Source: an uncultured Candidatus Saccharibacteria bacterium
GTDB lineage: Bacteria > Patescibacteriota > CALEFQ01
Assembly (NCBI GenBank): GCA_965230955.1
Contig: OZ246404.1
Coordinates: 161,184-225,183 of the forward strand
Length of the DNA: 64,000 nucleotides
Direction: 5' to 3'
Shown here: positions 1 to 29,915 of the stretch, piece after piece
How positions within the stretch are numbered: the stretch's first letter is position 1
How the letters are laid out: the number at the start of each line of letters is the position of its first letter
Translations under genes and position numbers: made by a program
The notes under the pieces: generated by a model
The model's database searches: none
Seen by the model: the letters and a program-made list of their open reading frames with translations, nothing else
What the model was told of the DNA's origin: nothing

Positions 1-1
1 T

Positions 2-1966
2 TTTGATCGGATTGCCGGCGCTTTTTGGGACAAAGAGGAAAATGATCAATCCAGTCCCGCGCTTGATTTAAAATTATCGCCGACCAACGTGACGAAGGGC
101 GGAGAACTGAATGTCACCGTCTCGCCCCAAAACTTTCGCACGATGGTTCGGAATTTGTATTTGAACTGGTGCCTGACTAACGGCGAAACCGGCGCCACCA
201 AGAGTTATAATGAAGTGATCGCGGGCGGCAAACCGGCGCAAACGTACGCTCAAGCCGGCTGGGCCGCCGGCGGCTGTTGCTCGCCGCTGACTCGGTCGGT
301 GACTTCTGACACCGACAACGACGGTATGGATGATCAGTGGGAACGGAATAATTTTTTGGGCCGGGAAGTAAACGGCGTGTTGGTGACCGAAAGCAATATC
401 GATACCGTCATCCAGCCCGGTGATGATTTGGATCACGACGGATACTACGCCCGTAAATTTGTAAACAAAGAAGGCCGGCCGGTGACGGCCGCGCCGGCGT
501 TGATTGATCATTTGGGCCGGATTTATTATCCCGGCGCCGGCGATACGCGTTTGACCAATGTCGAAGAATTTATTTTAGGCACTGATCCGATGGATGGCGA
601 TACCGATAACGACGGTTGGGGCGATGAGATGGACTATATGGGAATCGGCGCGACCACTTTTTCTTTCCCGGTGGAATTGGCACCCGGACCGAGCGGTTAT
701 TACCTGATCACATCGATCGCGGCCGGTATAAACAGCAACGGTGAGGTTTCGGTGGCGGCGCGCAGTAAGCGCTTTGATGTTTCCGAGGGTGAAAATTTGG
801 AAGTGTCGCTGTCCAGTCCGCAAACGAGCATGATTATCGATGAGCAGCCGCCGGGAGGATTTATCAAACTGAATGTCAGTATTGCGGGCGGGGAAGTCGA
901 GCCGGAAGATTTATATTTTGAATGGTTTTTCAACGGTCAGCCGGTTTGTGATTCGGATAAATACCGTGATTTTTGCCAGATGGGGCGGGATAGTATTGAA
1001 CTGGGCGGGGACGGGAAAGCGCTGATTGATTTGCCGGGCCTGGACGGGAAAGCGATCAATTTACAGCCCGGCACTCCGTATCTTTTTGCGGTCCGGGTCA
1101 CGGATCCGGCCTCTCGTCGGAGCGCCGACGCTGCTTTATACGTGCCGTTGGCTCAAGCTTTGCATCTCACCACTGCTTGTTCGGCCGGCGCCACCGACTC
1201 TTCCGCTATCCCGACGGATTCCGGCGAAACGACGACTATTTGCGTCGAGGAGTTCCAGGCGGGTAGTACCACGGCGGCCGGTTTCACCAAAGCCAATTGG
1301 CAGTGGTCGTTGGACGATGTCAGCGTCCAGGAACAATCCGGTATCGGCAAAAGCACGTTGACTATTACCGAGTCGGAATTAGCCGGCGGACAGCCCAAAG
1401 TGGTAGCCGAAATATTTGATGTAGCGGCGGGCGGTTTACTGGCTCGGGCGGCGCGGGATTTCGCGACTACCGGTCCGACCGTCGAAATTACTGAGCCGGT
1501 ATCGGAATACTACGGCGGCGGACGAGGGACCGACAATCGACTGGTTCACGGTCAACCCGGCGAGACTCTCCGTTTTGTTGCCACGGCCGTAAATTTCCCG
1601 GTCACCGGCGAAATCAATTTTTCCTGGCAGGCGGGCGGAGCCCAAAGCCAAGGTGTTGGTTTGTCGACTTTTGAATATACGATTCCTCTGGACGCCAAAG
1701 CGGGCCAAGATATTCCGGTGACCATCATGGCGCAAACCCGGTCTGCGACCGGACAAACGCTCATGGCTGAAGATAATATTACCCTCTTGGTCGGCGCGAC
1801 TTCCGGGGTGGCGGGATTGGGCGAAAAATTTCAAGCCGGGCTGGCCAAGGTGGCGAATTTGATCCCGGCCAGCTATCGCCTGGCTTTCACGATAGTAATT
1901 TCCGGCGCATTAATCGCCGGGCTGGCTTGGTTGGTCATGCGTTTATTGAAAATCGGTTCACTATAA
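2..1966 (+). CDS. Giant surface protein paralog A, 5'-truncated by the window edge. It carries TSP3-like Ca-binding DxDxDG repeats and a C-terminal TM anchor.
   Basis: The frame is open back to the window start (GTG at 89 is only the first start the ORF finder could call). Motifs NLYLNWCL, AGGKPAQ, GGCCSP and DTDNDGMDDQWERNNFLGREVNG align to internal regions of the two downstream paralogs. It ends with a hydrophobic helix plus a basic tail. Confidence 0.8.
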   Translation, partial: FDRIAGAFWDKEENDQSSPALDLKLSPTNVTKGGELNVTVSPQNFRTMVRNLYLNWCLTNGETGATKSYNEVIAGGKPAQTYAQAGWAAGGCCSPLTRSVTSDTDNDGMDDQWERNNFLGREVNGVLVTESNIDTVIQPGDDLDHDGYYARKFVNKEGRPVTAAPALIDHLGRIYYPGAGDTRLTNVEEFILGTDPMDGDTDNDGWGDEMDYMGIGATTFSFPVELAPGPSGYYLITSIAAGINSNGEVSVAARSKRFDVSEGENLEVSLSSPQTSMIIDEQPPGGFIKLNVSIAGGEVEPEDLYFEWFFNGQPVCDSDKYRDFCQMGRDSIELGGDGKALIDLPGLDGKAINLQPGTPYLFAVRVTDPASRRSADAALYVPLAQALHLTTACSAGATDSSAIPTDSGETTTICVEEFQAGSTTAAGFTKANWQWSLDDVSVQEQSGIGKSTLTITESELAGGQPKVVAEIFDVAAGGLLARAARDFATTGPTVEITEPVSEYYGGGRGTDNRLVHGQPGETLRFVATAVNFPVTGEINFSWQAGGAQSQGVGLSTFEYTIPLDAKAGQDIPVTIMAQTRSATGQTLMAEDNITLLVGATSGVAGLGEKFQAGLAKVANLIPASYRLAFTIVISGALIAGLAWLVMRLLKIGSL

Positions 1967-1972
1967 GCAATA

Positions 1973-4960
1973 ATGAATTTCCACACGCTTAAATCTGCCA
2001 GATTGATTTACGGGTTGATTGCCGGCGGTTTTTTCTTTTTATTTTTCTGTCTGCCTCAGCTGGCGTCGGCGTATAGTTTTGATCTGAGTTTGTCCGGTGG
2101 AGAATCGGCCGCTAGCGCCGAGCTTTCTTCGGAGATCGGCAATTGGGAAGTTAACGGCGGAGAATTTGTGAGCGACGGATATTTGTTAAGTACGAGCAGT
2201 CTGATTCGGTTGAAATTACCGAATAACTTGCCGGTAGGCCATGTCAAAATCAGATTTGAAGCGAAGGGCATTGATAATGATGTCAAAGCTTTGCCGGCGG
2301 GAGCCCAAGACGGATACATGTTCAGTCTTGGAAATGAGTGGTGCAATCCTTGCCCCCAGGAGGGTTATAATCAGGGCTGTGACGCGGCCAATTTCGGAGT
2401 CAGCCTGAAGAAATGGCCCGCTAATATGGGAGGAGACGCCTATTCAAATAGTATTTTGGCTCAAGGCTGGAGCGGCTTATTTAATGGCACGGCGGTTCCC
2501 GGAGCGGGCGTAGGCGATCAGTTTAATTGGGAAGATTATACCGGTTTCTATACGGTGGAATTGGATTTACATGCCGGCAGTAGCAGCGGAACGTTGAGTG
2601 TCTGGAAAGGAGATCCCAATGCCGGGGCGGCGCCGGTTCTAAATTCACCGAGCGGAGTACCTTATGGTTTATTGAAGTATGATAATCGAGATGATCTCAA
2701 AGTCGGTATCGGCGCGGAAGCGCCGGGCGAACCGTCGTATGGGGGAGTGACGATCCGCAATGTCAGTTTGCTGATGGAAGAAGAAGCTGCTCCGGCCGGT
2801 CATCCCACGTATCCGACGCAATGCGCGAATGAGGATCCGGAAGATAATATTTACGGAGTGTGTTCGTGCGTGGGCGGATCGCTATCCGATCCGGTGCCTT
2901 GCGAGGACACATATGTCGCCGGAGACAAACGCAAAGCGACGGTAATGAATCAATTCCCGTTTGAATTCGATCATTGGAAAATTGCTTGGGATCCAACCTG
3001 GACCATCAAAAGCATGATGAAAGAATTTGAGGCCAAGGATAAAGAAACGCAGATGCCGGCTTCGGTCGAAGTGCAATTTACTCCGCCGTCGCCCAAGGAA
3101 GGCGATCAAGCCGGGGCGGTCGCGACCGCTCTTAATTTCCGGACCCGGCCCAATAATTTGTATTACGCCTGGTGTCTGGTTGATGGCGACAGAGTTTGGC
3201 CGATGAACAGCGTGGTGGCGGGCGGCACCAGGCCGGAAAACGCTTCCGACAAACCATTTGATGAAAAAGGCTGCTGTGGTCCGATTACCCGGACGCCGAC
3301 GGTTGATAAAGATAACGACGGGATGGATGATAATTGGGAAATAGAAAAATTCATTGGACGGGCAGGGACCAATTACACTTCGATCGAAGAAGTCCGTCCG
3401 GGCGATGATCCGGATTCTGACGGATTTAAAGCCAGTAATTTCAAAAATGAAAACGGGCAGACTTTGACGGTGGCACCGGGGATGAGAGACAGTAAGGGTA
3501 ACGGTTATGTTACCGGCCAGACCGGTTCTTTCGCCAATATTGAGGAATACATTGCCGGCACCGATCCGCTTAACGGCGATACGGACGGTGACGGATTCGG
3601 CGATGAAATGGATTACGTGGGAGTGGGGCAATCAAATCTGCCTTTTGATATTGAGAAATCAGCCGGGCCGAACGGATACTATGATGTCGGAGTGTCGGTA
3701 GTGGGAATCGATAGCCGGAAAAAAACGGCTTTGACCAGTTCCAAACAGCGGATATTTATCGGCGACGATGATCAGTTGGAAGTTACATTGGACGCCGACA
3801 AAGAAGTTCTGACCTTTGGCTCCGATCAATCACTGGTGATTCAAGCCGATACGATCGCCGGATCGGAAACAAATCGAATTTTGTATTACGAATGGTCGCT
3901 AAACGGCGACTCAGCTTGCGATAAGTACGGCTACGAAAACGAAGACCTGTGCGATGTCGGCAAAGATGAACTAAAAATCGGCGCGGGCGGAATCAGTCCT
4001 TTGGATTTGCCGGCACCGACCTCGGAAGATTATACGATTGGGGTCAAGGTGCGCGACCAGGCGAGCCGCGATGAAGCCGAAGCGACTCTGGTCTTGCCGG
4101 TGGCTTACGCCGTCACTCTGACCACGGTTTGCAATGGACAAACCCAAGAGATAAATTCATTACCGGTAAACAGCGGGGACACTTTAGGGATTTGCATCGC
4201 CGAAATTGATGAAATCACGGCGGAGATGGAAGCGGCCAAATTGAATTTTGTTTGGAGTTATGATGGCGTCAATGTGGCTGAACAATCCGGCTTAGGGAAA
4301 ACACAATTTACCTTGGTGGCGGATGGTGATGCCGGCGCGACTCATACCGTGGCGGTCAGGATAAAAGATCCCAATCGCGCCCGGGAATTCGCCAATGGTT
4401 CTCGCCAGTTTGGCGTCGGCGGGCCGCGTGTCTCCATTGTGGAGCCGGCTGATCGGATCACTTTCAGTGACCAGGTTGTTCCCGGGGAGACGCGTTTTAT
4501 CGCTGTTCGGCCCGGAGAAAAATTACCCTTGGGCGCGAACCAGGAGAACTTTATTGGCACTCAGGGTTGGGTTGTGAACTGGCAGATCAATGGTGCGGCG
4601 GCTAATTCATACACCCTGTCGACTTTTGAACCAGGGGAAAAGCACTTGTTCACGTTCGATGTGCCGGCGGAGGCTCGGGACGGGCAAGTTTATACGATTA
4701 ATTTTTCCATTACCGCTATCGATAATGATCCGCCGGAATCGGCCAGTGACTCGATCAAGGTTGTCGTCGGTCCGGAGTCCGGCGTCCTGGGGCGGGCTAA
4801 TCCTTTTTTCAGCACGATGGCGGCGGTATTCAATCAAGTGCCGGAAATATTCAGACAGCTGATCACTTATGCCGGTATTTTGGCCGCGGTCTTTTTCGCC
4901 CTGGTTTTTCTTTACCCGAAGGTCAGCCGCTTTTTAGAAAACCGTCAGTCGAAAAAATAA
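1973..4960 (+). CDS. Giant surface protein paralog B (995 aa). It has a signal peptide, a Cys-containing N-terminal region, TSP3/dockerin-like Ca-binding repeats, Ig-like beta repeats, and a C-terminal TM plus basic tail.
   Basis: The N-terminal signal peptide is followed by the conserved core LNFRTRPNNLYYAWCLVDGD...KGCCGPITRTPTVDKDNDGMDDNWE and GTDPLNGDTDGDGFGDEMDY. The C-terminus reads ...PEIFRQLITYAGILAAVFFALVFLYPKVSRFLENRQSKK. Confidence 0.85.
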   Translation: MNFHTLKSARLIYGLIAGGFFFLFFCLPQLASAYSFDLSLSGGESAASAELSSEIGNWEVNGGEFVSDGYLLSTSSLIRLKLPNNLPVGHVKIRFEAKGIDNDVKALPAGAQDGYMFSLGNEWCNPCPQEGYNQGCDAANFGVSLKKWPANMGGDAYSNSILAQGWSGLFNGTAVPGAGVGDQFNWEDYTGFYTVELDLHAGSSSGTLSVWKGDPNAGAAPVLNSPSGVPYGLLKYDNRDDLKVGIGAEAPGEPSYGGVTIRNVSLLMEEEAAPAGHPTYPTQCANEDPEDNIYGVCSCVGGSLSDPVPCEDTYVAGDKRKATVMNQFPFEFDHWKIAWDPTWTIKSMMKEFEAKDKETQMPASVEVQFTPPSPKEGDQAGAVATALNFRTRPNNLYYAWCLVDGDRVWPMNSVVAGGTRPENASDKPFDEKGCCGPITRTPTVDKDNDGMDDNWEIEKFIGRAGTNYTSIEEVRPGDDPDSDGFKASNFKNENGQTLTVAPGMRDSKGNGYVTGQTGSFANIEEYIAGTDPLNGDTDGDGFGDEMDYVGVGQSNLPFDIEKSAGPNGYYDVGVSVVGIDSRKKTALTSSKQRIFIGDDDQLEVTLDADKEVLTFGSDQSLVIQADTIAGSETNRILYYEWSLNGDSACDKYGYENEDLCDVGKDELKIGAGGISPLDLPAPTSEDYTIGVKVRDQASRDEAEATLVLPVAYAVTLTTVCNGQTQEINSLPVNSGDTLGICIAEIDEITAEMEAAKLNFVWSYDGVNVAEQSGLGKTQFTLVADGDAGATHTVAVRIKDPNRAREFANGSRQFGVGGPRVSIVEPADRITFSDQVVPGETRFIAVRPGEKLPLGANQENFIGTQGWVVNWQINGAAANSYTLSTFEPGEKHLFTFDVPAEARDGQVYTINFSITAIDNDPPESASDSIKVVVGPESGVLGRANPFFSTMAAVFNQVPEIFRQLITYAGILAAVFFALVFLYPKVSRFLENRQSKK

Positions 4961-4970
4961 TTTTCTAATC

Positions 4971-7802
4971 GTGAAGTGTCTAATTTTTTTATTTCATCGT
5001 CTGTTTTTTTTCACCGCGGTGGTTGCGGGCGCTTTTGTAATTTGGTTTTGCTGCCCAATGTCGGCCAAAGCCGAGATTTTGACCTACCCATCTTTTAGCA
5101 CGCCTTCGGAAACCTCCGGACAGGAATGGAAAGTGGGGGAGGCGGCCGGCGGCGCGATTGTCATCGGATCATTGGAATTTGATGTGTCCGATTTGAGTCA
5201 AGCCAATCTCCTCAAGCACCAGATTTTCGCTATGTTTGATGCCTCTCAGCCTACTGCCTTTGCCAATCACGGTTACTGGATTCATTTTCGGAAACGCGCC
5301 GAGTTACCTTTCGACGGCCCGGGTTTCCAGTTTAAATTACAGGTGGATTGCTCGTGGGATGATGAGAACGTCAAAATCGATCCGGCGGGCTGGATGCCGG
5401 ATCGCACTTATCATTTTACTTTTTCTTGGGATCGCGATTCGACTAAGGTGGAAGTCTTTGATCCCGTCACCGGCCAGTCGGAAATATCGGAATTGCCTTT
5501 GCCCTCGCCCTTCAAAGCCCAGGATCAAGCGATTGTTTTCGGGGTGGCGGGTTTGGCCAATAGCGCCGCTTTTCCGGCCGAGCCGGGCGCGCATTATAGC
5601 AATATCACTTTGAATGCCCAAGAAGTCATCGCGGAGTTTGACGATTTCAATGGTTATCCGGCCTGTGAATTTGACGGAGGATGCGGGTGCGTCACCGAAG
5701 GCGATCCTTTTTCGGCTCCTTGTTCCGAGGCCAGCAGTACTCGGCCGCCGGAACCGGCCGATGATCCTTTCACCACTTCACTAAAGAGCGGACTGAAATG
5801 GAATTGGAAGATGAAAGATATGGCCGATTATTTATCCTGGCGCGAGAATAACGACCAAGATAATCCCGATGTCGAGATCCAGTCGATGACGCCGGGTTTG
5901 CCGCGCGGCGAAAAAGCGTCTTTTACCGCGGTTGCCCAGAATTACCGAACTCGAACAGATAATATATATTATTCCTGGTGCGTGCGCGACAGTTTGACCG
6001 GCAAAACCGCCAATTACAATAGCGTCATGGCCGGCGGTTTGTTGGCCGAAACATCCGATCTGAAACAGCCGGATGGTCATGGCCAGTGTTGCCAATGGAT
6101 CACTCGCCGGCCAACCGTCGATTTGGATGATACCAACGGCGACGGCCGGCCCGAAGGCGACGGGATGGATGATAATTGGGAGCGTCAGAAATTTGTCGGC
6201 CGGGAGGTGAATGGCCGGACTTATAATACGATTGAAGAAGTATTGCCGGATGATGATCCCGATCAGGACGGCACGGTGATGAATCGTTTCATCAATGCCG
6301 ATGAAGGCGTCCCGGTGACGGTGGTGGCCGGCCTGGTGGATTCGCTGGGAAATAAATATATCGCGGGCGGATCTGCGGGAAAACTTCGAAATGTGGAAGA
6401 ATATATTTTAGGAACCGATCCGCTCAACGGCGACACCGACGGCGACGGTTATGCCGACGAGGCGGATTATCTAGGCGAAGGCCAGAGCGTTCTGGAATTC
6501 GTGCCGGAGCAAGCGGTCGGAACCGGGTTTTACGAGGTCCAGGTTTCGACAGTGGGACTGAGCTCTCGGAAGAAAACTTATGTGGCTCTCGCTACGCGCC
6601 GAGTTTATCCCAGCCTCAAAGAACAGTTCAGTATTTCATTATCTTCCGATCGGAATGTGATCCCGGTGGGCTCAAATGATTCCACCAAAGTTAATTTGAT
6701 CGTCAATGTGCTGGGCGGCGATGCCAGTGGCGCTCAACTGGATTTCAGCTGGACTTTCCAGGGTGAAAGCGTCTGCGATGCGCAAAAATATCCAGAGTTG
6801 AGCAAGTTTTGCGATTTCAATCAGGGCCGGATATCTCTCGGAGGAAACGGCGCGCTGGCTTTTAAAGATTTACCGGGGATGGATCAGGTGCCGGAAGGGG
6901 GAGACTATATCATCGGTGTTCGAGCCGTCGATAGTGCGTCGCGCCAGGATGCCAGCGCCGAACTTCGTTTGAAAAAGGGCTCGGCTCTGACGTTGACGCC
7001 GGCTTGCGACGGAGCGCGCGACGAGACGGTCAGCGTGCCGGCCAACGGCGGATCGACAGTCATTTGCATCAGTGAATACGGAGTGGCCGATTTGGATCCA
7101 GCCGGTGCCGCTTTTAATTGGGCGATCGACGGTGTGATTGATCAGAATCAGAGCGGTCTGGGTCGGGACCATTTTACTTTATGGGCGACCAAGCCGGCCG
7201 GGTCAAGCCAACAGGTTGATTTAAAAATATTGTACGGCTCCAGTTTGGAGCGGGAATTGCTGGGATCAATCAACGTGCCGGTCGTCGGTGCGCTGGTAGA
7301 AATAAATAAGCCGGCGGATCGGATTGAGCCCGGCGATGGCAATGTTCCCCAAGCTACTCGCCTGATACGCGTGGCTCCGGGGGAGACGATTACTCTGGGC
7401 GCGCGCGCGGAGGCTTTTGGAGCAATTGATTCCTATCAGTGGTCGTGGCAGGCGGGCGAAAGCTCAAGTAGTACCGAAGGGGCAAACTCCGAATCTGATT
7501 TTACTTATTCCGTGCCGGTTGGGGCCTCGATAGGGGAAGTGATACCGGTCTCGGTCACGGCGCGCGGGCAAAATCAAACCGGCCGAATCACGGATGCCGG
7601 CGATACCATTTCGTTGCTGGTCGGTAGCGGTAGCGGGCGACTCGGCGCGGGAGGCGGATTGTCGCGGACCTTCGCCGCTTTATCGGCGGTGATACCGGCT
7701 CAGTATCGGGCGAGTTTTCAATTAATCGCACTGGTGGCCGGGGCACTGGGTGTGCTATTGGCCGGATTATATTTTTATAGTCGAATGACTTCCAAGAGAT
7801 GA
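4971..7802 (+). CDS. Giant surface protein paralog C (943 aa; GTG start) with the same core module and C-terminal anchor.
   Basis: Signal peptide. Conserved motifs NYRTRTDNIYYSWCVRD, GQCCQWITRRPTVDLDD, GDGMDDNWERQKFVGREVNG and GTDPLNGDTDGDGYADEADY. C-terminus reads IPAQYRASFQLIALVAGALGVLLAGLYFYSRMTSKR. Confidence 0.85.
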   Translation: MKCLIFLFHRLFFFTAVVAGAFVIWFCCPMSAKAEILTYPSFSTPSETSGQEWKVGEAAGGAIVIGSLEFDVSDLSQANLLKHQIFAMFDASQPTAFANHGYWIHFRKRAELPFDGPGFQFKLQVDCSWDDENVKIDPAGWMPDRTYHFTFSWDRDSTKVEVFDPVTGQSEISELPLPSPFKAQDQAIVFGVAGLANSAAFPAEPGAHYSNITLNAQEVIAEFDDFNGYPACEFDGGCGCVTEGDPFSAPCSEASSTRPPEPADDPFTTSLKSGLKWNWKMKDMADYLSWRENNDQDNPDVEIQSMTPGLPRGEKASFTAVAQNYRTRTDNIYYSWCVRDSLTGKTANYNSVMAGGLLAETSDLKQPDGHGQCCQWITRRPTVDLDDTNGDGRPEGDGMDDNWERQKFVGREVNGRTYNTIEEVLPDDDPDQDGTVMNRFINADEGVPVTVVAGLVDSLGNKYIAGGSAGKLRNVEEYILGTDPLNGDTDGDGYADEADYLGEGQSVLEFVPEQAVGTGFYEVQVSTVGLSSRKKTYVALATRRVYPSLKEQFSISLSSDRNVIPVGSNDSTKVNLIVNVLGGDASGAQLDFSWTFQGESVCDAQKYPELSKFCDFNQGRISLGGNGALAFKDLPGMDQVPEGGDYIIGVRAVDSASRQDASAELRLKKGSALTLTPACDGARDETVSVPANGGSTVICISEYGVADLDPAGAAFNWAIDGVIDQNQSGLGRDHFTLWATKPAGSSQQVDLKILYGSSLERELLGSINVPVVGALVEINKPADRIEPGDGNVPQATRLIRVAPGETITLGARAEAFGAIDSYQWSWQAGESSSSTEGANSESDFTYSVPVGASIGEVIPVSVTARGQNQTGRITDAGDTISLLVGSGSGRLGAGGGLSRTFAALSAVIPAQYRASFQLIALVAGALGVLLAGLYFYSRMTSKR

Positions 7803-8773
7803 AAATTATTAACTTTTTTTCACAATTCAACGGTCGGACGGCAGTATTGCTCGGTCTGATAGTTTTGGGCTGTTTGCTGGCGGGCATGCCTTTCTTGACT
7901 CAGGCCGGGACGGTGAATCTGGAAGTAGGGATCGGTACCAACACCACGACCGAAGGTATATCGTTTTATATCGGCATGATTTATCGTTTTGCCGCGGCGA
8001 TCGTCGGGGTGATCGCGGTGATCATGATCATCATCGGTGGGATCCAGTATTCCGCTTCGGCCGGCAATCCCGCCGCCTTGGGTTCGGCCAAGGAGACGAT
8101 TACCAGTGCGATTATCGGCCTGGTGATTGTGTTGATGTCTTATTTGATTTTAGGTGTTTTCAGTTCGCGTTTCACGAATTTGTCCGAGCCGGTTTTGGAT
8201 CCGGTTGATATTCCCGCGACGGATAAACCGGCGAATGATCCCACCGGAGCCAATTGTCCGGGAACGTCAATGACCGATGCCAGGACAAATCTGGATTTGG
8301 ATGAAACGTGCACCAGTATCTGTCGTTTTGGGAAATACAGTGCTAAGTCGTATAAACCGAACGTAAATACCGTTTGCTGTATTTGCACGGCCGGTGGGAC
8401 TTGCCCCGGTGGATATATATATTCTCAAGATCGAAGCCAGTGTGATATGTTTTGTCGGCAGAATTTGAATATAGGAGTTGAGGATTATAAGGCTAATTGC
8501 TGCAAATGCCGTTCCTGTCCGGCCGGAAGCCGGCGAATATCCGATTTGGGCGGGCAGTCTTGCAGTCAAGCATGCGGCACCTTGGGGGTAGCCCAGGAAA
8601 CAGCCGAGTGTTGTACCTGTAATGCGGAGTCTCAATTACCATGCCAGATTGACGGCGCTTACTATTGTAATGCCGACAAAAAAAGCGTGGATAGTTTTTG
8701 TCAGACCTCGTTTTCGCCGGATCAAAATTGTAGAGTATCCCAAGAAGGCAGCCAATGGTGTTGTCGGCCTTGA
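7799..8773 (+). CDS. VirB2/TrbC-like two-helix pilin-domain membrane protein fused to a Cys-rich C-terminal ectodomain (24 Cys in about 180 aa).
   Basis: It overlaps the upstream stop by ATGA. After the signal peptide come two hydrophobic helices separated by a short polar loop (AIVGVIAVIMIIIGGIQYSASAGNPAALGSAKETITSAIIGLVIVLMSYLIL), typical of conjugative T4SS pilins. The C-terminal region carries CC dipeptides (VCCIC, NCCKC, ECCTC, WCCRP). Confidence 0.7.
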   Translation: MKIINFFSQFNGRTAVLLGLIVLGCLLAGMPFLTQAGTVNLEVGIGTNTTTEGISFYIGMIYRFAAAIVGVIAVIMIIIGGIQYSASAGNPAALGSAKETITSAIIGLVIVLMSYLILGVFSSRFTNLSEPVLDPVDIPATDKPANDPTGANCPGTSMTDARTNLDLDETCTSICRFGKYSAKSYKPNVNTVCCICTAGGTCPGGYIYSQDRSQCDMFCRQNLNIGVEDYKANCCKCRSCPAGSRRISDLGGQSCSQACGTLGVAQETAECCTCNAESQLPCQIDGAYYCNADKKSVDSFCQTSFSPDQNCRVSQEGSQWCCRP

Positions 8774-8816
8774 TCTCGCTGGGCTAATGCCGGTGAATTT
8801 GCTATTATGGTAAATA

Positions 8817-9782
8817 ATGAATACTTTTTCTAAAAAACTGATTTGGCTGGTCATCGTTTTAATGGCGGTGGTTTGGTTTAGTCCTTTTTGGGTTCAGGCC
8901 GAGACGACGAGAATCGTTCCGAAAAATGCGGTCAATTTGGAAGTGGGAATCGGCGGTTTCAATCAAGTGAAGGGCGGAATTGTTGACTACATCGGCCAGA
9001 TTTACATTTTTGCTACGGCAATTGTCGGCGGTTTGGCGGTGGTGATGATTATCATCGGCGCGGTGCAGTATTCCTCTTCAGCCGGCAACAAGGCGGCCAT
9101 GGGCTCCGCCAAAGAAACAATTACCAGCGCGATTATCGGATTGGTGATTGTGCTTATGGCGTATTTGATCCTTGGGACATTTAGCGGAGATTTTGTGAAT
9201 TTGGTGAATCCGAGGCTGGAGGTTCTGGATATTTCCGATCAGGCGCCAGGCAAAGCGGGTTGTTCTTGGCAAACCGGTACCTCTTGCTCTGATCCTGTCA
9301 ATTTCAGGCAAGGTGATGCGGTAGAGTGTGGCGGTACGGCCGAGGCAGGAAAAGTTTGTTGTTGTCAAAGAGTTGATACTCTTCCGGGAACGTGTTTTGA
9401 TTTTTCCGCGGATAAAAATTCCTGTGATCCAGACAACGGGAAAAGAAATTGCTTTAAGCCGATAAGTGGACCATATAATAGTTTGACCGGTTGTACGGTT
9501 AATTGTACCAATAAAAACCCAGCTAATTTCTGTAAGGAGTCACCAGTAGCTGATGGCCAGCAATCTTCAGCGTATTGTTGTTATGAAGATGTTACTCCTC
9601 CTCCTTCTGGTGTCCCAGAGTGTCCGGCCGATACCACGACCGGGCGAATGTATGACTATTACGACCAATGCAAGCGAGCTTGTGGTGTGGCGGGCGATAA
9701 ATGTTGTCGAGCGGCAGATTTGACCACGTGTGTAGCGGCTAGTAGCTCGGACAAGAATTGGTGCTGTATGCTAAATCCGTAA
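8817..9782 (+). CDS. Paralog of the previous protein: a VirB2/TrbC-like pilin-domain membrane protein with a divergent Cys-rich ectodomain (22 Cys).
   Basis: The N-terminal 120 aa are nearly identical in pattern (NLEVGIGG...AIVGGLAVVMIIIGAVQYSSSAGNKAAMGSAKETITSAIIGLVIVLMAYLILG). The C-terminus is Cys-rich and divergent (VCCCQ, YCCYE, KCCRA, WCCML). Confidence 0.7.
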   Translation: MNTFSKKLIWLVIVLMAVVWFSPFWVQAETTRIVPKNAVNLEVGIGGFNQVKGGIVDYIGQIYIFATAIVGGLAVVMIIIGAVQYSSSAGNKAAMGSAKETITSAIIGLVIVLMAYLILGTFSGDFVNLVNPRLEVLDISDQAPGKAGCSWQTGTSCSDPVNFRQGDAVECGGTAEAGKVCCCQRVDTLPGTCFDFSADKNSCDPDNGKRNCFKPISGPYNSLTGCTVNCTNKNPANFCKESPVADGQQSSAYCCYEDVTPPPSGVPECPADTTTGRMYDYYDQCKRACGVAGDKCCRAADLTTCVAASSSDKNWCCMLNP

Positions 9783-9785
9783 TTT

Positions 9786-11018
9786 ATGAAGAAAATAGTT
9801 TTATTGATTATCATTGCCTCGTCTGCTTTTGTGGGGATTTTGGTGTTTTTTCTGTTTTTCCGTTCGGCCGGTACTGTCCCGCCAGCCGGGAGCTCTGTCA
9901 CATCTGCGTCTGATTCTAGTAATCCAGCTTCGGGTCTTAATCGATTCCCGATTGATAGTCAATCCAATACGGCGGGGAGTACTGAGGAAATGCTGGTGGT
10001 GACGACGGAAAGCGCCTTGCGCGATCGTTTTGTCATGAAAAAAATCATAAACACAAAGACGGAGGGAGCGACGCTGTCGGCTGATGGAAACAGAATCCTA
10101 TACTACGATATTTTAGATCCGGTTTTGGCTTCGGTAAATTTTTTAGGAGCCGATCCCAGAGAATTGGCTGATTTGCCGAGTAATGTCGAAGAAATAATTT
10201 GGGCTCCCGATAAAGACAAGATAGTTTATCGTGACGATGCCGCCAATATTACGTATTTTGAAATTGCTGGCAAAAAAGAGAGAAGGCTGAACCCAAATAT
10301 AAAGAGCGTCGTTTTTACTTCCGATAGTCAAAAGATTTGCTACCAATATAGCAATGATAAAAATAGCCAAAAGACTATCAATATCGCGACTCCCGGCTTG
10401 GACCTGACCGATTTCAAAGTATTGGTACGTGGTCTCGGTGATTATCAATTACGATCGATTCCGATGACAACTAAGCTGGCTTATTTTTTAACGCCGAGTC
10501 TTAAACGCAGTTCCATCGCTTATTCTATAAATACTTCTGATGGAAATAGGGAGATTTTAGTGGGCGAGACACTTGGTTTAGACGCACGCTGGTCGCCTGA
10601 TGGGAAAAAGATGGTTTTTACCCAGCTGGTTGAAAATGGACGATTGGCTTTGTTGCTGGCGCCTAGCACGGGGCTAAATCCGTCGGATCTTAAACTGTAT
10701 ACTTACGTAGATAAAACGGCTTGGCATCCAAATGGTTCCGAAGTATATGTTGCCGAGCCGCAGCAGTGGGTTTCGCTTGAGGATTATTACTCCGGCAACG
10801 TCAAAACAAACGATATTCTGTATAAGGTGAATATAAACACTGGTGAAAAAACGGAATTACTGAATCTTTTCAATGTCGTCGGCTCTAAAGTCGATTTCAG
10901 AGATGGATTTTTCACGTCCGATGGAAAGATTCTTTTTTTCACCAACGCGGTTGATCAGTCTGTTTACATGATCGATGTTGAAGATGTTAATTTGACCGCC
11001 GCGGATAATATCAGATAA
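9786..11018 (+). CDS. Membrane-anchored secreted protein with a TolB/PD40-like beta-propeller repeat signature.
   Basis: N-terminal TM (MKKIVLLIIIASSAFVGILVFFLFF). Repeated W-x-PDG motifs (WAPDKDKIVY, WSPDGKKMVF, WHPNGSEVYV) typical of PD40/TolB-like blades. Confidence 0.55.
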   Translation: MKKIVLLIIIASSAFVGILVFFLFFRSAGTVPPAGSSVTSASDSSNPASGLNRFPIDSQSNTAGSTEEMLVVTTESALRDRFVMKKIINTKTEGATLSADGNRILYYDILDPVLASVNFLGADPRELADLPSNVEEIIWAPDKDKIVYRDDAANITYFEIAGKKERRLNPNIKSVVFTSDSQKICYQYSNDKNSQKTINIATPGLDLTDFKVLVRGLGDYQLRSIPMTTKLAYFLTPSLKRSSIAYSINTSDGNREILVGETLGLDARWSPDGKKMVFTQLVENGRLALLLAPSTGLNPSDLKLYTYVDKTAWHPNGSEVYVAEPQQWVSLEDYYSGNVKTNDILYKVNINTGEKTELLNLFNVVGSKVDFRDGFFTSDGKILFFTNAVDQSVYMIDVEDVNLTAADNIR

Positions 11019-11020
11019 TT

Positions 11021-12415
11021 ATGCCCAAACCCAAAACAACTTACGAGTGCACTAATTGCGGAGCGCAGTTCCCGGGCTGGCTCGGGCGCTGTACCGAATG
11101 CGGCGCTTGGAATACGGTTGAGGAAACCGCGGTTTTGCCGGAAAAACAAACGGCGACCGGCGCGTCCTATACGCCCAGCCGGCCGAGCCAAATGAGCAAG
11201 ATTGCTAGTGTCGGCTCCGAGGCCATGCTGACCGGGATCGGCGAGTTTGATCATGTTATCGGCGGGGGAATCATTCCCGGCGGAGTGATTTTGATCGGCG
11301 GCGATCCGGGGATCGGGAAATCGACTTTGGTGATGCAGATTTGTGCCGGATTCCTGAAAACCAATACCAGTAAAAAATTGCTCTATGTTTCCGGCGAGGA
11401 ATCGCTCGGCCAGATCAAGATGCGAGCGGATCGTATCGGCATCACCGGCGATTCAATCGAATTTTTGACCGAGACCGGCGTGGAATATATTATTTCGGTC
11501 ATTTCCAAACAAAAGCCCGCGCTGGTGGTGATCGATTCAATTCAGACCATGTATACGAATGAAGCGCCCGGGGGAGCCGGCAGTATTTCGCAGGTGCGGG
11601 GAGCTACCGGAAAACTCATGGAAGTGGCCAAGCGTTTCAATGTCGCGCTGATCTTGATCGGTCATGTGACCAAAGAAGGAGCCGTGGCCGGACCGCGCAC
11701 CTTGGAACATTTGGTTGATACCGTTTTATATCTCGAGGGCGATCGCTATCAGGCTTTCCGGATTTTGCGCGGAGTCAAGAATCGTTTCGGCTCGACCAAT
11801 GAAACCGGCGTGTTTGAAATGCGGGATGAGGGCTTGGTGGAAGTCAAAGATCCTTCGGGAATTTTCTTGCAAGAGCGCCTAACCGATGTTTCCGGCTCGG
11901 TGATCGGCGTGACGGTGGAAGGCAATCGGCCATTTTTGATCGAAGTTCAAGCGTTAACGACTACGACGCCTTTCGGCTATCCCAAACGAACTTCTTCCGG
12001 CATCGATTTTAATCGCTTGTCGCTTTTGATTGCCGTTCTGATGAAACGGGCGGGGCTGAATCTTTCTTCGCAAGACGTCTTTGTTAATATCGTCGGCGGT
12101 TTTCGGATCAAGGAACCGGCGGTTGATTTGGCCGTCTGCCTGGCTGTCGCCTCCGCTTTTCTGGACAAACCGATCGCTCCCCAAACGGTGGTGGTCGGCG
12201 AAGTTGGTTTGGCGGGCGATGTCCGCCCGGTCGCGCTGATGGATCGGCGGGTAATGGAAGCGTCGAAACTCGGTTTCACCACGATTCTGGTGCCAAAAAT
12301 GGCCAATGGCAATCTCAAAGTTCAAAATAACGGCAACAGCAAATTGGTGCCGGTGGCGAATTTGACCGAGGCGATCACGGCCGTGCTGGGACCGGTAAAA
12401 CGGTACCGCAAATAA
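11021..12415 (+). CDS. radA: DNA repair protein RadA/Sms
   Basis: N-terminal C4 zinc finger (CTNCGAQFPGWLGRCTECGAW), Walker A GDPGIGKST, KNRFG motif, and a Lon-like C-terminal domain. Confidence 0.95.
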   Translation: MPKPKTTYECTNCGAQFPGWLGRCTECGAWNTVEETAVLPEKQTATGASYTPSRPSQMSKIASVGSEAMLTGIGEFDHVIGGGIIPGGVILIGGDPGIGKSTLVMQICAGFLKTNTSKKLLYVSGEESLGQIKMRADRIGITGDSIEFLTETGVEYIISVISKQKPALVVIDSIQTMYTNEAPGGAGSISQVRGATGKLMEVAKRFNVALILIGHVTKEGAVAGPRTLEHLVDTVLYLEGDRYQAFRILRGVKNRFGSTNETGVFEMRDEGLVEVKDPSGIFLQERLTDVSGSVIGVTVEGNRPFLIEVQALTTTTPFGYPKRTSSGIDFNRLSLLIAVLMKRAGLNLSSQDVFVNIVGGFRIKEPAVDLAVCLAVASAFLDKPIAPQTVVVGEVGLAGDVRPVALMDRRVMEASKLGFTTILVPKMANGNLKVQNNGNSKLVPVANLTEAITAVLGPVKRYRK

Positions 12416-12979
12416 ATGGCCCGCCTGCCCCGAAAATTTTACGAACGTTCGACTCTAAAAGTTGCTCCGGAGTTACTGGGGCATTTTTTAGTGAGACAAG
12501 GAACAGGTAACAAGGAACAAGTAACAAAAAGGAAAACGATAATTACGGATGTGGAGGCGTATGTGGGAGAGGGGGATCCGGCTTGCCATGCCAGTCGGGG
12601 ACAGACCGAGCGCAACAAAATTATGTATGGCCGGGCCGGCCACGCTTACGTTTATTTTATTTATGGAATGTATCACTGTTTGAATGTGGTTACGGAGAGG
12701 GAAGGTTTTCCGGCGGCAGTGCTAATACGCGGCGTAAGTAACAAGGAACAGGGAACAAGTAACAAAAGGGAAATATTAAATGGCCCGGGGAAGTTGTGTC
12801 GGGAACTGAGGATAACTAAGGGGCTAAATGGTACTGATTTAGTTATGGGGCAAGAACTGTGGATCGAAAAAAATCCCGAGCGAAATAATTTTTTACGATC
12901 TCGCAAAATCAAAAAAACCCCGCGCGTCGGTATTAGCGCGGGGCGAGATAAATTGTGGCGCTGGGTGATCGAATCGTAG
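12416..12979 (+). CDS. mpg: DNA-3-methyladenine glycosylase (Mpg/AAG family)
   Basis: Motifs VEAYVGEGDPACHASRGQTERNKIMYGRAGHAYVYFIYGMYHCLNVV...AAVLIRG...NGPGKLC. Two loop regions are encoded by GTAACAAG-type repeat DNA (see findings). Confidence 0.85.
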   Translation: MARLPRKFYERSTLKVAPELLGHFLVRQGTGNKEQVTKRKTIITDVEAYVGEGDPACHASRGQTERNKIMYGRAGHAYVYFIYGMYHCLNVVTEREGFPAAVLIRGVSNKEQGTSNKREILNGPGKLCRELRITKGLNGTDLVMGQELWIEKNPERNNFLRSRKIKKTPRVGISAGRDKLWRWVIES

Positions 12980-17921: not shown

Positions 17922-18470
17922 ATGAAAAAGCCGTTCTATTTGGGTGTTTTTCTGCTTGTGGTGCTGGGAATCGTGGCGATTGCCGCCGAGCCTAAATTGG
18001 AGGTCAAGGGCGAGGTAACGCGGGAATCATACAATAACATGGGACTGGGAGGGGGGATGACTTTACCGGTGGCCTACCATGTCAAAGTCACTGTCAAAAA
18101 TCTCGGGCCGGAATTTTCTTGCGATACCGTTTTGGGGAGATTTGCTCCGATGCGTGGAAAAGAGCTCAATTGCGTGTCCTCCAAAGTTGATCCCAATGAT
18201 CCCGGTGGTGAGAAAACAATCCCCTGGAAGTTTGCGACCGGACAACCATTGGAGTTTGAGTTTTCGACCAATGGTTATACCCAATCATTGCTCAATTTTT
18301 CCGGTAGCGAACCTTTGCAGTTTCATTTACTTCTGGGTTTGCTGGGGGAAAAACAAGCGGTGATGTATACGGCTGATTTGCCGCCATTAAAAGATCTGCC
18401 GATGTACGAACTGACTCTGGTGGGCGAAGCCAAGGCTCTGCCGTTAATTTTACAAAACAAGCCCCGCTGA
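17922..18470 (+). CDS. Hypothetical secreted protein (signal peptide)
   Basis: AAGGAGG RBS. N-terminal signal peptide MKKPFYLGVFLLVVLGIVAIAA. Confidence 0.6.
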   Translation: MKKPFYLGVFLLVVLGIVAIAAEPKLEVKGEVTRESYNNMGLGGGMTLPVAYHVKVTVKNLGPEFSCDTVLGRFAPMRGKELNCVSSKVDPNDPGGEKTIPWKFATGQPLEFEFSTNGYTQSLLNFSGSEPLQFHLLLGLLGEKQAVMYTADLPPLKDLPMYELTLVGEAKALPLILQNKPR

Positions 18471-18490
18471 GCAGGCGAAATTCAGCAAGC

Positions 18491-18523
18491 AAAAGAGGAT
18501 GAGTAAAATCATCCTCTTTTTTC
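18491..18523. terminator. Bidirectional Rho-independent terminator between convergent genes
   Basis: AAGAGGATGAGTAAAATCATCCTCTT hairpin flanked by an A-run and a T-run. Confidence 0.6.
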
Positions 18524-24602: not shown

Positions 24603-27600
24603 TTGGCTAAAATGCCCGTGCCTAAAAGCAATTGGCCCATCAAAAAGACTACCGTGGTCCTCATCGCGACGGTAGCTTTTATTATTTCGGCGGCGATTTT
24701 ACTGCCTAATCGGGAAATTATCCCGACTTATGCCGCCGGTGGCGAAATGTCAGTGACGCTGGAGGGTTACTGGTGGGCACCGAACGGCGGCTGGATTAAT
24801 TTACAATGGGATACTGTTGGAGAAAACGGTGTTCGGGTTGATAAAAGCTCTTTTACCGGCAAACCATTCTTTGATGGTTTTGCTTGGGGACCGAATATCG
24901 GCTGGATCAGTATGCGCGATACTTCCGGCGCCGGCCAATATGGGGTAGTAGTGCGTGAGCCGATAAATCCTACGCCGGCCGGTGGCGTCTGGCATGTCGA
25001 TAATTATGCCTGGGGTCCGAATATTGGCTGGTTGAATTTTGACGCTATTGATAGCGGAGCAAATTCGGCCCAACAGCCTCGGATAGTGATGGAAAATTTG
25101 GGAGTACCCGGATCGGAGGTCTCGGAAGACGCGCGCCTAAAAGGCTATGCCTGGTCGCCGAATATCGGATGGATCAAATTGGATTCCGATTTGCCGGGCT
25201 GGAAAGATACAAACGATCCGGTGCTGAAATATTTCGATGTTTTGCCGGAAGTCATGCCGCCTTTGCCTTCAGAAAAATACGCGTCCGGGGTTTATAAAGA
25301 CAGTTATGATTGCTGTGGCGGAACATTGAATACTTTCGCGGCCGGCCACATGGTGTGGGTGCGCCCGGCGGTGGAATTCAAAGCAACCATGCATAGCCAG
25401 GACAATCGTACGCGCTGGCACGATTTGAATATTTCCGCGGTGACTGCCAATCCCCAGACGATCCCGGAGCTCTATCTTTGGAAAGATCGTTTGCGTTTTC
25501 GGCCGGGACTAGAGCCGTCCTCGATTGGAAATGTGAACGCGTATGATGCCGCGCTGAATGAATTCTTGCCCAATCCCGATTTTGCCGCCGGATCTAATCC
25601 CAATGTGCCGATGACTGGGGGAGAGGTCAAGGTGCCGTCAGAAGAAGACATCAATGGCGACGGCAAAAACGAAATTATTTGGAAAAGCACTTCACATTTC
25701 TTGTCAGGCACGCCCGGAGCGAATAATTATGTTTTACGTGAATTCCGATACAATGTTCGCGATGCTGGTGGTAATTATGCTTGTCCCGACGCGGAGCCGG
25801 CGACCTTTGATTGGAGTACTGGACAGGGCTGTATTATTCCGAGTTTACCTTCGCCCTATAGCCCAATGACCGGGCGGGTGGGAGTGGCCGTGGATAAAAT
25901 CCAGCCGTCCGGATCGCTCTTTATCAATGATACCGAATTTACCGAATCAGAGACGGTCAAGGTCAGTGCCACGGCCAAAATAGATTTCAAGGTGGAATAT
26001 ATTGATACCGAATCTGGATCGTATCACGTGATTTTGGATTATCGGCGCAAAGCCGGTAATGCCTGGCCGCTGGTTTGGAGCGATCCGATCGGTGAGCGCC
26101 GCTGGAATCTAGGCCGGGAAGCTGTCACTTGGAATATTGATGGCAACATTGACCTGGGAGCGGAAACCGAAAAAGAAACTCCGCTAAATACCAGCGACTG
26201 GGCTGACGGGCAGGAATTCCAATTGCGTTTGCGAGTGATTGATAATGTTGGCAATGTACGAGAGCGAATTTTGCCGGCGGTGATCAATCGGACTCCGCCG
26301 ACGGGAGTATTCACCGCCGCTGATCCGATTGATCGCGATCCAAACCGGACGCGCTATGACGCGGTGGATTTGTATTTACCGCCCAGCGCGACCATTAAAA
26401 CTATGCAATTTGCGAATACCCCTGATGGTTTCGGAAGTGAATTTGAACCGTACCCTTGGTTGAACGGTGGCTGGAGGGAGGGTCACTGGTCGCTAGAAAT
26501 TGTCCAAGGGGAAGAAGTTACAGGTGGCCTGAAATCCATCTACGCCAATTTCTGCGACGGGACTATTCCCGAGGCGGTATGTACCCATGACCAAAATAAA
26601 GAAATAAAGGCTCAAATTGCCGCCCCGTGGTTTGAAGGAGCGCAGGGCGATGTTTATGCCGGGTCGGGGATCGGGACGCGCAGTGCCCAGTTCAACGGGA
26701 TCGCACCGTATTTGACTGTCGGCGTCCAGAAATATAACGCCACTTACCGGATCACGTCTGACGGTGAGATAAAACCTCAGATCACTTCGGAGCGCGGCTG
26801 GTCCGAAGGGGACTACCAAAATTTTGGTTATCCCGGGATAGGTGGCACCATCGCGCCGATCGATTTTGAATCCCTCCGGCTTCAGGCCGATATTCAGACG
26901 GATGATGAGATTGCTCAGGCGGGGGAATTAGATTTCACTCAGAGTACCAACGGAATAATTTTATTACAAAGCGGCTCGTCGAAATCGGATGCGTCTTTGG
27001 GAAGCAACGGGGACCGATTAATAGTCCGCGGAACCGGCACCTTGCTGGTGGATGGCAATCTGCGAATTTTAAAAGATTTATACTATGCCGATTCATTGGC
27101 GGATCAACCCACTCCGGAAATTGATTCCATGGCGGTTTTGACGCGCCGGAGTAGTGCGGATTCACGGGGCAATGTTTATGTCGGCGAAAATGTTCGCCAT
27201 ATGGTCGGCGCCTACATCGTCGGCTTAGGCAATTGTTTTCAGGCTAAATGTCCGAATGACTCGCTGGGAACCGGAGTTTTCCATTCTTCCGCCGATTTCT
27301 CCGCCGGTATCGGAACTGATCCGAATCTAAAAGCCTCGAAATACGAACTGGTGGTCGAAGGCATGGTGGCCGCGCGCGATTTTGATCTGGGGCGATATAG
27401 TACCGGCAATCAGAATTTCCTTACTAACGCCGATCTCGAACCGAGCGTCTCTGAAGTTCCCAAGAGTTGTTTGGTCGGTTGGACTTGTGACCCGGCTGAT
27501 CCTAATATATTTCAGGCCAGTGACAAAGATGTCGTATCGGGCAAGCAAAAACTGCAAATATCACTCAAACCGGGCCAAAAGGGTAATTTGTTGCAGTCTA

Positions 27601-28034
27601 ATATTTTTATTAACCTCCAGGGAGAATCAACTCTGAGCTTGTCGGGATATTTACGGTCGACGATTGCCGGTTTACCGGTGCCGCAAACCATTGATTTGGC
27701 GATTGGCGGGCAAACTTGTACGTTACAACCATCGGATATCGATTCTCAATGGCGGCGATTTCAGTGTTCGGTCAAGGTATTGGGCGAAGCCAAGAGTATT
27801 GATTTGCGGATAACGGCGATTAATTTTTTGAAGGAAGACGGTTTCACCCTGGACCTTGATGCCCTACAGTTGGAAGCCGGCAATGAAGCGACGGAGTGGC
27901 ACAATAAGTTTGAAGGCGATACCAATTATATGGCTTCGGAGCGTTTCTATTACGATGGCCGAGTGATCTTGAATACTCCACCGGGATTGGCGTCTTTGAC
28001 CAGTCCGGCCTGGGGAGAAACGATCGCCGATTAG
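24603..28034 (+). CDS. Giant secreted/membrane-anchored repeat protein (1143 aa) immediately upstream of the pilus operon
   Basis: N-terminal TM, then tandem WGPNIGWI-containing repeats (AWGPNIGWISM, AWGPNIGWLNF, AWSPNIGWIKLD), and a long beta-rich C-terminal region. Confidence 0.7.
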   Translation: MAKMPVPKSNWPIKKTTVVLIATVAFIISAAILLPNREIIPTYAAGGEMSVTLEGYWWAPNGGWINLQWDTVGENGVRVDKSSFTGKPFFDGFAWGPNIGWISMRDTSGAGQYGVVVREPINPTPAGGVWHVDNYAWGPNIGWLNFDAIDSGANSAQQPRIVMENLGVPGSEVSEDARLKGYAWSPNIGWIKLDSDLPGWKDTNDPVLKYFDVLPEVMPPLPSEKYASGVYKDSYDCCGGTLNTFAAGHMVWVRPAVEFKATMHSQDNRTRWHDLNISAVTANPQTIPELYLWKDRLRFRPGLEPSSIGNVNAYDAALNEFLPNPDFAAGSNPNVPMTGGEVKVPSEEDINGDGKNEIIWKSTSHFLSGTPGANNYVLREFRYNVRDAGGNYACPDAEPATFDWSTGQGCIIPSLPSPYSPMTGRVGVAVDKIQPSGSLFINDTEFTESETVKVSATAKIDFKVEYIDTESGSYHVILDYRRKAGNAWPLVWSDPIGERRWNLGREAVTWNIDGNIDLGAETEKETPLNTSDWADGQEFQLRLRVIDNVGNVRERILPAVINRTPPTGVFTAADPIDRDPNRTRYDAVDLYLPPSATIKTMQFANTPDGFGSEFEPYPWLNGGWREGHWSLEIVQGEEVTGGLKSIYANFCDGTIPEAVCTHDQNKEIKAQIAAPWFEGAQGDVYAGSGIGTRSAQFNGIAPYLTVGVQKYNATYRITSDGEIKPQITSERGWSEGDYQNFGYPGIGGTIAPIDFESLRLQADIQTDDEIAQAGELDFTQSTNGIILLQSGSSKSDASLGSNGDRLIVRGTGTLLVDGNLRILKDLYYADSLADQPTPEIDSMAVLTRRSSADSRGNVYVGENVRHMVGAYIVGLGNCFQAKCPNDSLGTGVFHSSADFSAGIGTDPNLKASKYELVVEGMVAARDFDLGRYSTGNQNFLTNADLEPSVSEVPKSCLVGWTCDPADPNIFQASDKDVVSGKQKLQISLKPGQKGNLLQSNIFINLQGESTLSLSGYLRSTIAGLPVPQTIDLAIGGQTCTLQPSDIDSQWRRFQCSVKVLGEAKSIDLRITAINFLKEDGFTLDLDALQLEAGNEATEWHNKFEGDTNYMASERFYYDGRVILNTPPGLASLTSPAWGETIAD

Positions 28035-29158: not shown

Positions 29159-29163
29159 TCTAC

Positions 29164-29243
29164 AGTCTTTGGTCTTTGGTCTTTAGTCTTTAGAAGTAGG
29201 GGATTCTAAAGGCTGGTGACTAATAACTAATAACTAATTTATG
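29164..29243. repeat. GTCTTTGG-family period-7 repeat. The partner arm is degenerate and TAATAAC-rich.
   Basis: GTCTTTGGTCTTTGGTCTTTAGTCTTTAG ... CTAAAGG ... TAATAACTAATAACTAA, between pilM and pilN. Confidence 0.6.
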
Positions 29244-29888: not shown

Positions 29889-29915
29889 TCGATATATTTC
29901 TAAAAATATAAATAT

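Follow-up and report, generated by a model that had tools for sequence, protein, structure and literature searches.

VirB2-like pilin-family proteins with cysteine-rich ectodomains in a type IV secretion cluster of an uncultured Candidatus Saccharibacteria bacterium

Why would a bacterium of the phylum Patescibacteriota attach long, cysteine-laden tails to small pilin-like membrane hairpins? The question is raised by two adjacent genes, here called pilin A and pilin B, in a 64,000-nucleotide (nt) stretch of DNA from an uncultured Candidatus Saccharibacteria bacterium (lineage CALEFQ01; assembly GCA_965230955.1, contig OZ246404.1, positions 161,184 to 225,183 of the forward strand), referred to below as the window. 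An original prediction, made from the letters and their reading frames, placed two Cys-rich pilin-like open reading frames (ORFs) at positions 7799-9782, and both are indeed present there. With somewhat better than even confidence, we consider A and B to be VirB2-like subunits, of the T4SS_pilin family, that belong to a chromosomal type IV secretion system (T4SS) and display swappable, disulfide-bonded ectodomains facing a host.

Both genes lie on the + strand and encode proteins built to the same plan. Pilin A (7799..8773) has 324 amino acids (aa) and begins with a predicted Sec signal peptide (7799..7906, aa 1-36), for which hydropathy and an AXA-type site suggest cleavage between TQA and GT. 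Its core (7910..8188, aa 38-130) comprises an NLEVGIG motif, helix 1, an SAGN...SAKET loop and helix 2, and is followed by a Pro/Asp-rich linker and a Cys-rich ectodomain (8189..8770, aa 131-324). Pilin B, a paralog of A (8817..9782, 321 aa), repeats this arrangement, with its core at 8928-9209 and a linker and Cys-rich ectodomain at 9210..9779 (aa 132-321) that ends in WCCMLNP. Hydropathy profiles place hydrophobic stretches at about residues 10-39 (signal peptide), 54-89 and 99-126 of A, and at about residues 3-29 (signal peptide, probably cleaved between VQA and ET), 58-88 and 97-130 of B. In both proteins, a short polar loop thus separates two hydrophobic stretches of about 30 residues after the signal peptide. 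AlphaFold2 models agree with this layout, returning hairpin helices at residues 54-87 and 91-125 in A and at 55-87 and 92-130 in B, with a predicted local distance difference test (pLDDT) score of about 70-82. The input alignments held 20-21 sequences and mean pLDDT was 55.7 (A) and 54.2 (B); the usable parts of the models are the hairpins, together with the last ~35 residues of A. Three independent metagenome assemblies, as well as a 1.136-Mb NCBI contig, contain a gene for exactly this protein A, which indicates that the ORFs are real and not assembly artefacts.

The identity of the hairpin follows from profile searches. The Pfam family PF18895 (T4SS_pilin) matches A with 34.3 bits and B with 38.6 bits, above its gathering threshold of 26.6 bits, and it also matches 86 of 87 related pilin-core ORFs. 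A hidden Markov model of the core scores the pilin A core at 151 bits. Judged by these sequence matches, A and B belong to the PF18895 family, and the predicted combination of a signal peptide with two hydrophobic helices of the T4SS-pilin kind is borne out. The best NCBIfam match of both proteins, NF045849, spans the whole hairpin (E = 7.5e-6 for A and 6e-5 for B), with scores of 25.5 and 22.6 bits that fall under the 40-bit cut-off of that family. Neither protein has an N_methyl match of the type IV pilus class, which the type IV pilins of the same window (36961-38705) do have, and PDB sequence and profile searches with A and B gave nothing relevant. In size, both proteins depart from VirB2-type pilins, which have roughly 100-150 aa, since A and B continue for about 190 aa past the hairpin.

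It is this continuation that sets the pair apart. Protein A contains 25 Cys, namely C25 in the signal peptide and 24 in residues 153-322, with four CC pairs; protein B contains 22, all in residues 149-317, with one CCC run (181-183) and three CC pairs. Cys accounts for 12.4% of the A tail and 11.6% of the B tail, compared with 0.81% in 41 other large window ORFs, an enrichment far above chance. The predicted tails of 22-24 Cys with CC and CCC runs are therefore as described. The claim that the N-terminal parts are nearly identical was too strong, as the cores share just 67 of 93 residues (72%). The tails are as divergent as had been claimed: they can be aligned solely via scattered Cys, and Cys spacing differs between the paralogs. 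The A tail holds three C-x3-C...CC-x-C repeats (Cys171, 215 and 255) and a C-terminal helix-plus-hairpin module with WCCRP at its end, whereas the B tail has no such repeat. A word-indexed search of 5.8 billion proteins with both tails, and an exhaustive phmmer search of 1.84 billion representative proteins with tail A, returned the query alone. In Pfam, the A tail matches nothing at E<=1, and the toxin, defensin and metal-binding families, the first two of which had been proposed as places to look, are unmatched for A or B.

The genomic setting connects the pair to secretion. The original prediction reported no T4SS ATPase, which is true of the window ORFs in our Pfam scans but reflects where the window begins. 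A public contig (L004; 16,058 bp) matches window positions 1-12765 with 100% identity and continues upstream for another 3,293 bp. At L004:45-1880 it carries the gene for a VirB4-type ATPase of 611 aa (P-loop_TraG 91.8 bits, AAA_10, DUF87 and a weak TraC_F_IV match). This gene ends about 1.4 kb before the window start, and 9.2 kb separate it from pilin A, which follows downstream in the same string of genes. The order of the operon is VirB4, a 140-aa membrane protein, three giant surface proteins, pilin A, pilin B, a PD40 propeller protein and RadA, with intergenic gaps of 0-45 nt. In a scan for promoters and terminators, terminator-like sites were no more frequent than expected by chance, and the genes are not separated by any convincing site of either kind. 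Because the VirB4-type ATPase stands just upstream in the same gene string, the A/B pair forms the 3' terminus of the T4SS cluster already known from Patescibacteria. Related contigs (L005, L007, L008 and L011) show matching gene order. In L008, the closest species representative (VirB4 86% identical), the genes just upstream of VirB4 encode a PrgI/VirB3-like protein (41.5 bits), a protein with a weak TrbL/VirB6 match and a TraC-N-like protein.

Comparison with two sister species (L005 and L007) separates the two halves of each protein. Identity is 94-96% for VirB4, 88-91% for RadA, 66-72% for the giants and 81-88% for the pilin cores (81-83% at the aa level for the core of pilin A), and the LEVGIG, SAGN and SAKET motifs of the core are invariant. 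The Cys-rich tails give no match in these species at E<1e-3. At the DNA level, only the core-coding segments of about 270-300 nt match (77-82%), with abrupt edges. Core conservation near the housekeeping level argues for specific protein contacts over a passive anchor. A distant relative offers a further contrast: L011 (OZ246411.1, an 844-kb chromosome) encodes at 18064-18513 a 149-aa short pilin without a Cys-rich tail, within the order VirB4, giants, pilin, PD40 and RadA. Hence, the tail appears to be a lineage-variable add-on. Hypervariability of the Cys-rich domain, which had been put forward as a point to test, is seen between sister species, whose tails do not match, but finds no support inside this population, as three Logan assemblies are identical in sequence. 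A silent-cassette system of the Neisseria-like type was likewise considered and rejected for the window, which contains no silent tail-coding DNA copies elsewhere.

The same modularity recurs across related loci. We surveyed 83 VirB4-anchored loci from species-representative genomes, 52 of which have pilin-core ORFs within 10 kb. Canonical pilin size (<=160 aa) is found in 14 of 87 pilin-core ORFs, and an N- or C-terminal extension with at least 6 Cys in 65 of 88. BLAST groups 72 extension domains into 37 clusters, with the A and B tails as singletons. The length of the core envelope remains constant at about 75-95 aa, so that no insertion inside the hairpin is apparent. At least 27 homologs share the A/B architecture, and close homologs carry up to 36 + 20 Cys on either side of the core. 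In seven relatives (P0006, P0007, P0008, P0010, P0011, P0017 and P0024), an extra domain with 26-36 Cys lies between signal peptide and core, so that both termini of the hairpin can bear Cys-rich modules. These N-terminal domains are built of C-x3-C...C-x-C repeats. Many loci pair one short with one long pilin. Across the family, 33 of 38 C-terminal extensions have an even number of Cys and 5 an odd number (p = 2e-6), which extends the suggestion, first made from the even counts of A and B, of a disulfide module; such parity fits extracellular domains in which every Cys would be disulfide-bonded.

Other relatives carry enzymes on the core. Among the 87 pilin-core ORFs, fusions to SLT lytic transglycosylase (8), GDSL lipase (5), M15/VanY (2) and Amidase_2 (1) domains were found. 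Examples at L016:16294-17943, L018:19008-20948, L072:13740-15173, L025:15098-16108 and L059:15710-16744 include SLT, N-terminal GDSL lipase, Amidase_2 and VanY/Peptidase_M15 domains. They would represent VirB1-like and lipolytic activities placed on a VirB2-like core. Since relatives fuse hydrolases and lipases there, the extension positions carry extracellular, envelope-directed domains. The earlier idea that a pilin domain is reused as an anchor for ectodomains gains from these fusions; its framing as a new type of appendage is not supported, because Patescibacterial VirB2-like pilins beside virB4, tandem arrays included, have already been published (PMC12102498, PMC10633639, PMC12857230).

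What the sequences show directly is the domain architecture, the family, the T4SS linkage, the modularity across loci and a selection pattern in which the core stays constant and the tail is replaced. Building on this, we suggest a stepwise model, in which topology, disulfide bonding, polymerisation and host contact are inferred. Each protein would be exported by the Sec pathway and its signal peptide removed. The alpha-helical hairpin would then insert into the membrane with the topology of VirB2 and TraA, the SAGN...SAKET loop being cytoplasmic, or lumenal once assembled, and the termini outside. Both pilin termini are also expected outside in F and T pili. The C-terminal domain of about 190 aa would thereby lie outside the cell, where its 22-24 Cys could form 11-12 disulfides, as the even counts across the family would predict. 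The constant hairpin would dock with the VirB4-driven machine or be polymerised by it. Finally, the variable disulfide-rich domain, carried on a T4SS appendage or on the cell surface, may contact the envelope of a host bacterium in adhesion or recognition, and in relatives, envelope-attacking enzymes would occupy the same position.

How well does a subunit role account for the evidence, compared with a simpler function of the hairpin? In a pilus, the two proteins might serve as lateral decoration or as minor or tip subunits; otherwise they might stay in the membrane as anchored accessories. Near-housekeeping conservation of the core and the pairing of short with long pilins favor a specific role in assembly. 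Several findings weigh against it. No T4SS pilus has been reported in Patescibacteria (PMC12857230), and "pilin" is used here as a family name. Fitting a 20-kDa domain on each subunit into a filament of the VirB2 type may be difficult, and neither the window nor the preceding 3.3 kb encodes a short "major" pilin. The canonical TrbC/VirB2 family PF04956 has no Pfam match in A or B at E<=1, so that of the two families originally put forward for the hairpin, T4SS_pilin and TrbC/VirB2, only the former is matched; in two relatives, PF04956 appears below threshold (E = 4e-4 and 6.5e-3). An hhalign comparison with four Rhizobiales plasmid VirB2/TrbC sequences, Agrobacterium-type VirB2 included, is in register with E = 2e-3, at a weak probability of 12.6%, and Foldseek against the PDB gave generic two-helix matches alone (E >1) and nothing specific. 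The AlphaFold2 models of the ectodomains are of a low confidence that precludes assigning a fold or a binding function. Tail variability lies between species and is not rapid inside this population. A thiol-disulfide oxidoreductase was not found in the scanned ORFs of the window, and Patescibacteria are not known to have quinone-linked respiration, which leaves no evident oxidant for 11-12 disulfides. One alternative is a hairpin that serves as a T4SS-associated membrane anchor or docking tag and forms no filament, comparable to the transmembrane-anchored VirB1/PrgK-type hydrolases of Gram-positive T4SSs. The bulky enzymes of relatives (SLT, Amidase_2, M15 and GDSL lipase, 220-375 aa) are unlikely passengers on every pilus subunit and, with the window's lack of a short pilin, favor an anchor or minor subunit; the scarcity of canonical-sized ORFs in the survey and the unobserved pilus (PMC12857230) speak for the anchor. 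Yet the identity of the core between species and its invariant motifs exceed what a generic anchor needs, although docking to VirB6 or VirB4 could explain them, and paired short and long pilins recall systems with major and minor pilins. A pure anchor is accordingly a possible explanation that we regard as rather doubtful.

Other explanations concern the tail. The original prediction also proposed a secreted Cys-rich effector, for which no positive evidence emerged. In its most explicit form, the Cys-rich domain would be cut off at the Pro/Asp-rich linker, yielding an effector, bacteriocin or defensin-like peptide that is stabilised by disulfides and directed at the host. The linkers are flexible, and the three repeats of the A tail resemble the grammar of cysteine-stabilised alpha-beta (defensin-like) peptides: in the model of this region (pLDDT <55), the C-x3-C of repeats 1-2 lies in helices and the CC-x-C of repeat 1 in the following strand. 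One relative has a marginal AtDEF-like match (E = 9e-4). However, neither tail matches a Pfam toxin or defensin family, the repeat is missing from B, and enrichment of the motif across the family is modest (13 observed versus 6.3 +/- 2.4 in shuffles). Moreover, hhalign detected no significant similarity between the repeats of the A tail and the Cys-rich domains at the N termini of relatives (E ~0.01, probability <5%), and neither a protease site nor a dedicated protease was identified, which makes release as a toxin improbable. A domain whose Cys ligate metals or clusters extracellularly, with no disulfides, would suit the very high Cys density and an anoxic habitat, in which many such organisms live and disulfide formation is non-trivial. 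It is less probable still, given the predominance of even counts, which fits pairing, the absence of both a regular CxxC/CxxCH pattern and a Pfam metal-binding match, and the lack of conserved Cys spacing between the paralogs. As for mis-assembly or chance read-through that joined a small pilin gene to non-coding sequence, nothing besides the unusual composition speaks for it. Identical ORFs in three independent assemblies and the NCBI genome, the numerous homologs of the same architecture, and the even Cys counts and conserved C-terminal CC motifs, which indicate selection on the tail, make such an artefact extremely improbable.

Set beside known systems, the pilin family and its T4SS are already familiar in this phylum. 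Quinonero-Coronel et al. (2025) counted 1,948 assemblies with PF18895/VirB2-like pilins; in 1,135 of them the pilins lie close to virB4, and 441 tandem arrays were noted (PMC12102498). Epibiotic growth of S. epibionticum requires its pilin array and its T4SS, whose function has been described as unknown (PMC12102498, PMC10633639, PMC12857230, PMC11665869). A and B share with these published pilins (PMC12102498; Wang et al. 2023, PMC10633639) the PF18895 family, the phylum-level context, divergent tandem paralogs, and linkage to a VirB4/PrgI-type monoderm-like T4SS with no relaxase nearby. They differ in the location of divergence: the published proteins are described as small pilins in sequence-divergent arrays, whereas A and B combine a conserved core with divergence in an appended domain of about 190 aa. 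The literature searched contains no mention of Cys-rich or enzymatic ectodomains fused to the Patescibacterial pilin core; the orphan, swappable Cys-rich ectodomain on a conserved VirB2-like core and its hydrolase and lipase siblings thus seem to be undescribed there.

More distant systems resemble the pair in part. Canonical VirB2/TrbC/TraA pilins (PF04956) have the same signal peptide, two hydrophobic helices, short polar loop and neighboring VirB4, yet they measure about 70-120 aa, lack an ectodomain and serve diderm T4SSs, while the bacterium that encodes A and B is monoderm. Flagellin combines a conserved D0/D1 polymerisation core with hypervariable, surface-exposed D2/D3 domains. The shared logic of an assembly core with a swappable outer domain is an analogy alone, as flagellin has no homology to A and B and uses another secretion and assembly machine. 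The Mbov_0395-family protein of Mycoplasma integrative and conjugative elements (NF045849) is pilin-like, belongs to a monoderm T4SS and is similar to A and B over the whole hairpin, but has about 80 aa and no Cys-rich domain. Monoderm MPF_FATA systems have been stated to lack VirB2 homologs (PMC12102498). The multicopy VirB2 paralogs of Bartonella and Anaplasma (cited in PMC12102498) are, like A and B, tandem variable copies, thought to diversify a host-facing surface; there, variation lies within the small pilin itself, whereas in A and B the core is constant and the appended domain varies.

The neighbors of the pair include further surface proteins, and the predicted tight operon with three giants and a TolB-like propeller is confirmed in that the PD40 protein and the paralogous giants adjoin the pilins. 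The first giant, represented in the window by its 3' part (1..1966), follows the 140-aa membrane protein on L004 and has 973 aa in full (L004:2338-5259), with a signal peptide and a C-terminal transmembrane anchor. The second (1973..4960, 995 aa) has a signal peptide, an ectodomain of about 900 aa and a C-terminal transmembrane anchor. The third (4971..7802, 943 aa from GTG 4971) has a weak PKD match and shares 4 nt with pilin A, its stop overlapping the start of that gene; its public gene call from an internal ATG (914 aa) drops the signal peptide, which the GTG 4971 start (region 4971-5060) restores in a form that matches the paralogs. All three are on the + strand, have a large ectodomain and a C-terminal transmembrane anchor, share 32-38% identity and are essentially without Pfam matches. 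Giant 2 is syntenic in L005 and L007 (66-69% identical), and relatives hold two to three syntenic giants. They are candidate surface or adhesin components of the T4SS. Downstream of pilin B, a membrane-anchored PD40/TolB-like beta-propeller protein (9786..11018, + strand, 410 aa; PD40 30.6 bits) has an N-terminal transmembrane segment. Its homologs occur at 31 VirB4-anchored loci, directly after a pilin-core ORF in 18 and directly before one in several others. L005 and L007 each carry the propeller gene twice, directly downstream of a pilin-core gene in each case, and one of the L007 pairs lies downstream of radA. The PD40 propeller may be a dedicated partner of the pilins.

Elsewhere, the window presents a small-genome chromosomal setting, with genes for RadA, MPG, RecG, a ClpB/ClpC-type ATPase, LigA and GatA. 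The T4SS is distinct from a complete type IV pilus cluster at 28085-39597 (+), which encodes PilM, a 215-aa ORF without a Pfam match, PilO, PilB-like and PilT-like T2SSE ATPases, PilC (T2SSF), a prepilin peptidase, three N_methyl pilins and a PilX_N protein. Directly upstream of pilM lies a 1143-aa ORF (24603-28034, +) with no Pfam or NCBIfam match. Directly after the GatA-like amidase gene, at 47155-50529 (+), lies the gene for a surface protein of 1124 aa that is rich in beta-propellers and contains NHL, FG-GAP and TIG repeats. GC skew is positive in all 2-kb bins and genes lie mostly on the + strand, which places the window within one replichore. Six tRNA genes, including two for tRNA-Met and two for tRNA-Ser, are on the minus strand.

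A broader proposal, which we offer tentatively and hold to be rather unlikely as a whole, would make the VirB2-like hairpin a universal T4SS display handle across much of Patescibacteria. A VirB4-assembled filament or stalk would bear, on its outer face or at its tip, a combinatorial and quickly exchanged set of orphan disulfide-rich binding modules and envelope-degrading enzymes (SLT, amidase, M15 peptidase and GDSL lipase), and the pilus would be an organ with which these epibionts recognize and breach the host. The Cys-rich domains of A and B would then be host-range determinants, and the PD40 propeller a dedicated partner in assembly or folding. At the level of the locus itself, the finding matters because the T4SS belongs to the small set of systems whose necessity for an epibiotic way of life has been demonstrated in a cultivated Patescibacterium. 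It corrects the working assumption that Patescibacterial pilins are small and VirB2-sized, and it may be part of the reason why freshwater-specific structure clusters are dominated by PF18895 (10.1101/2025.04.23.650224). The architecture also suggests that contact with the host envelope is made by the pilin proteins themselves.

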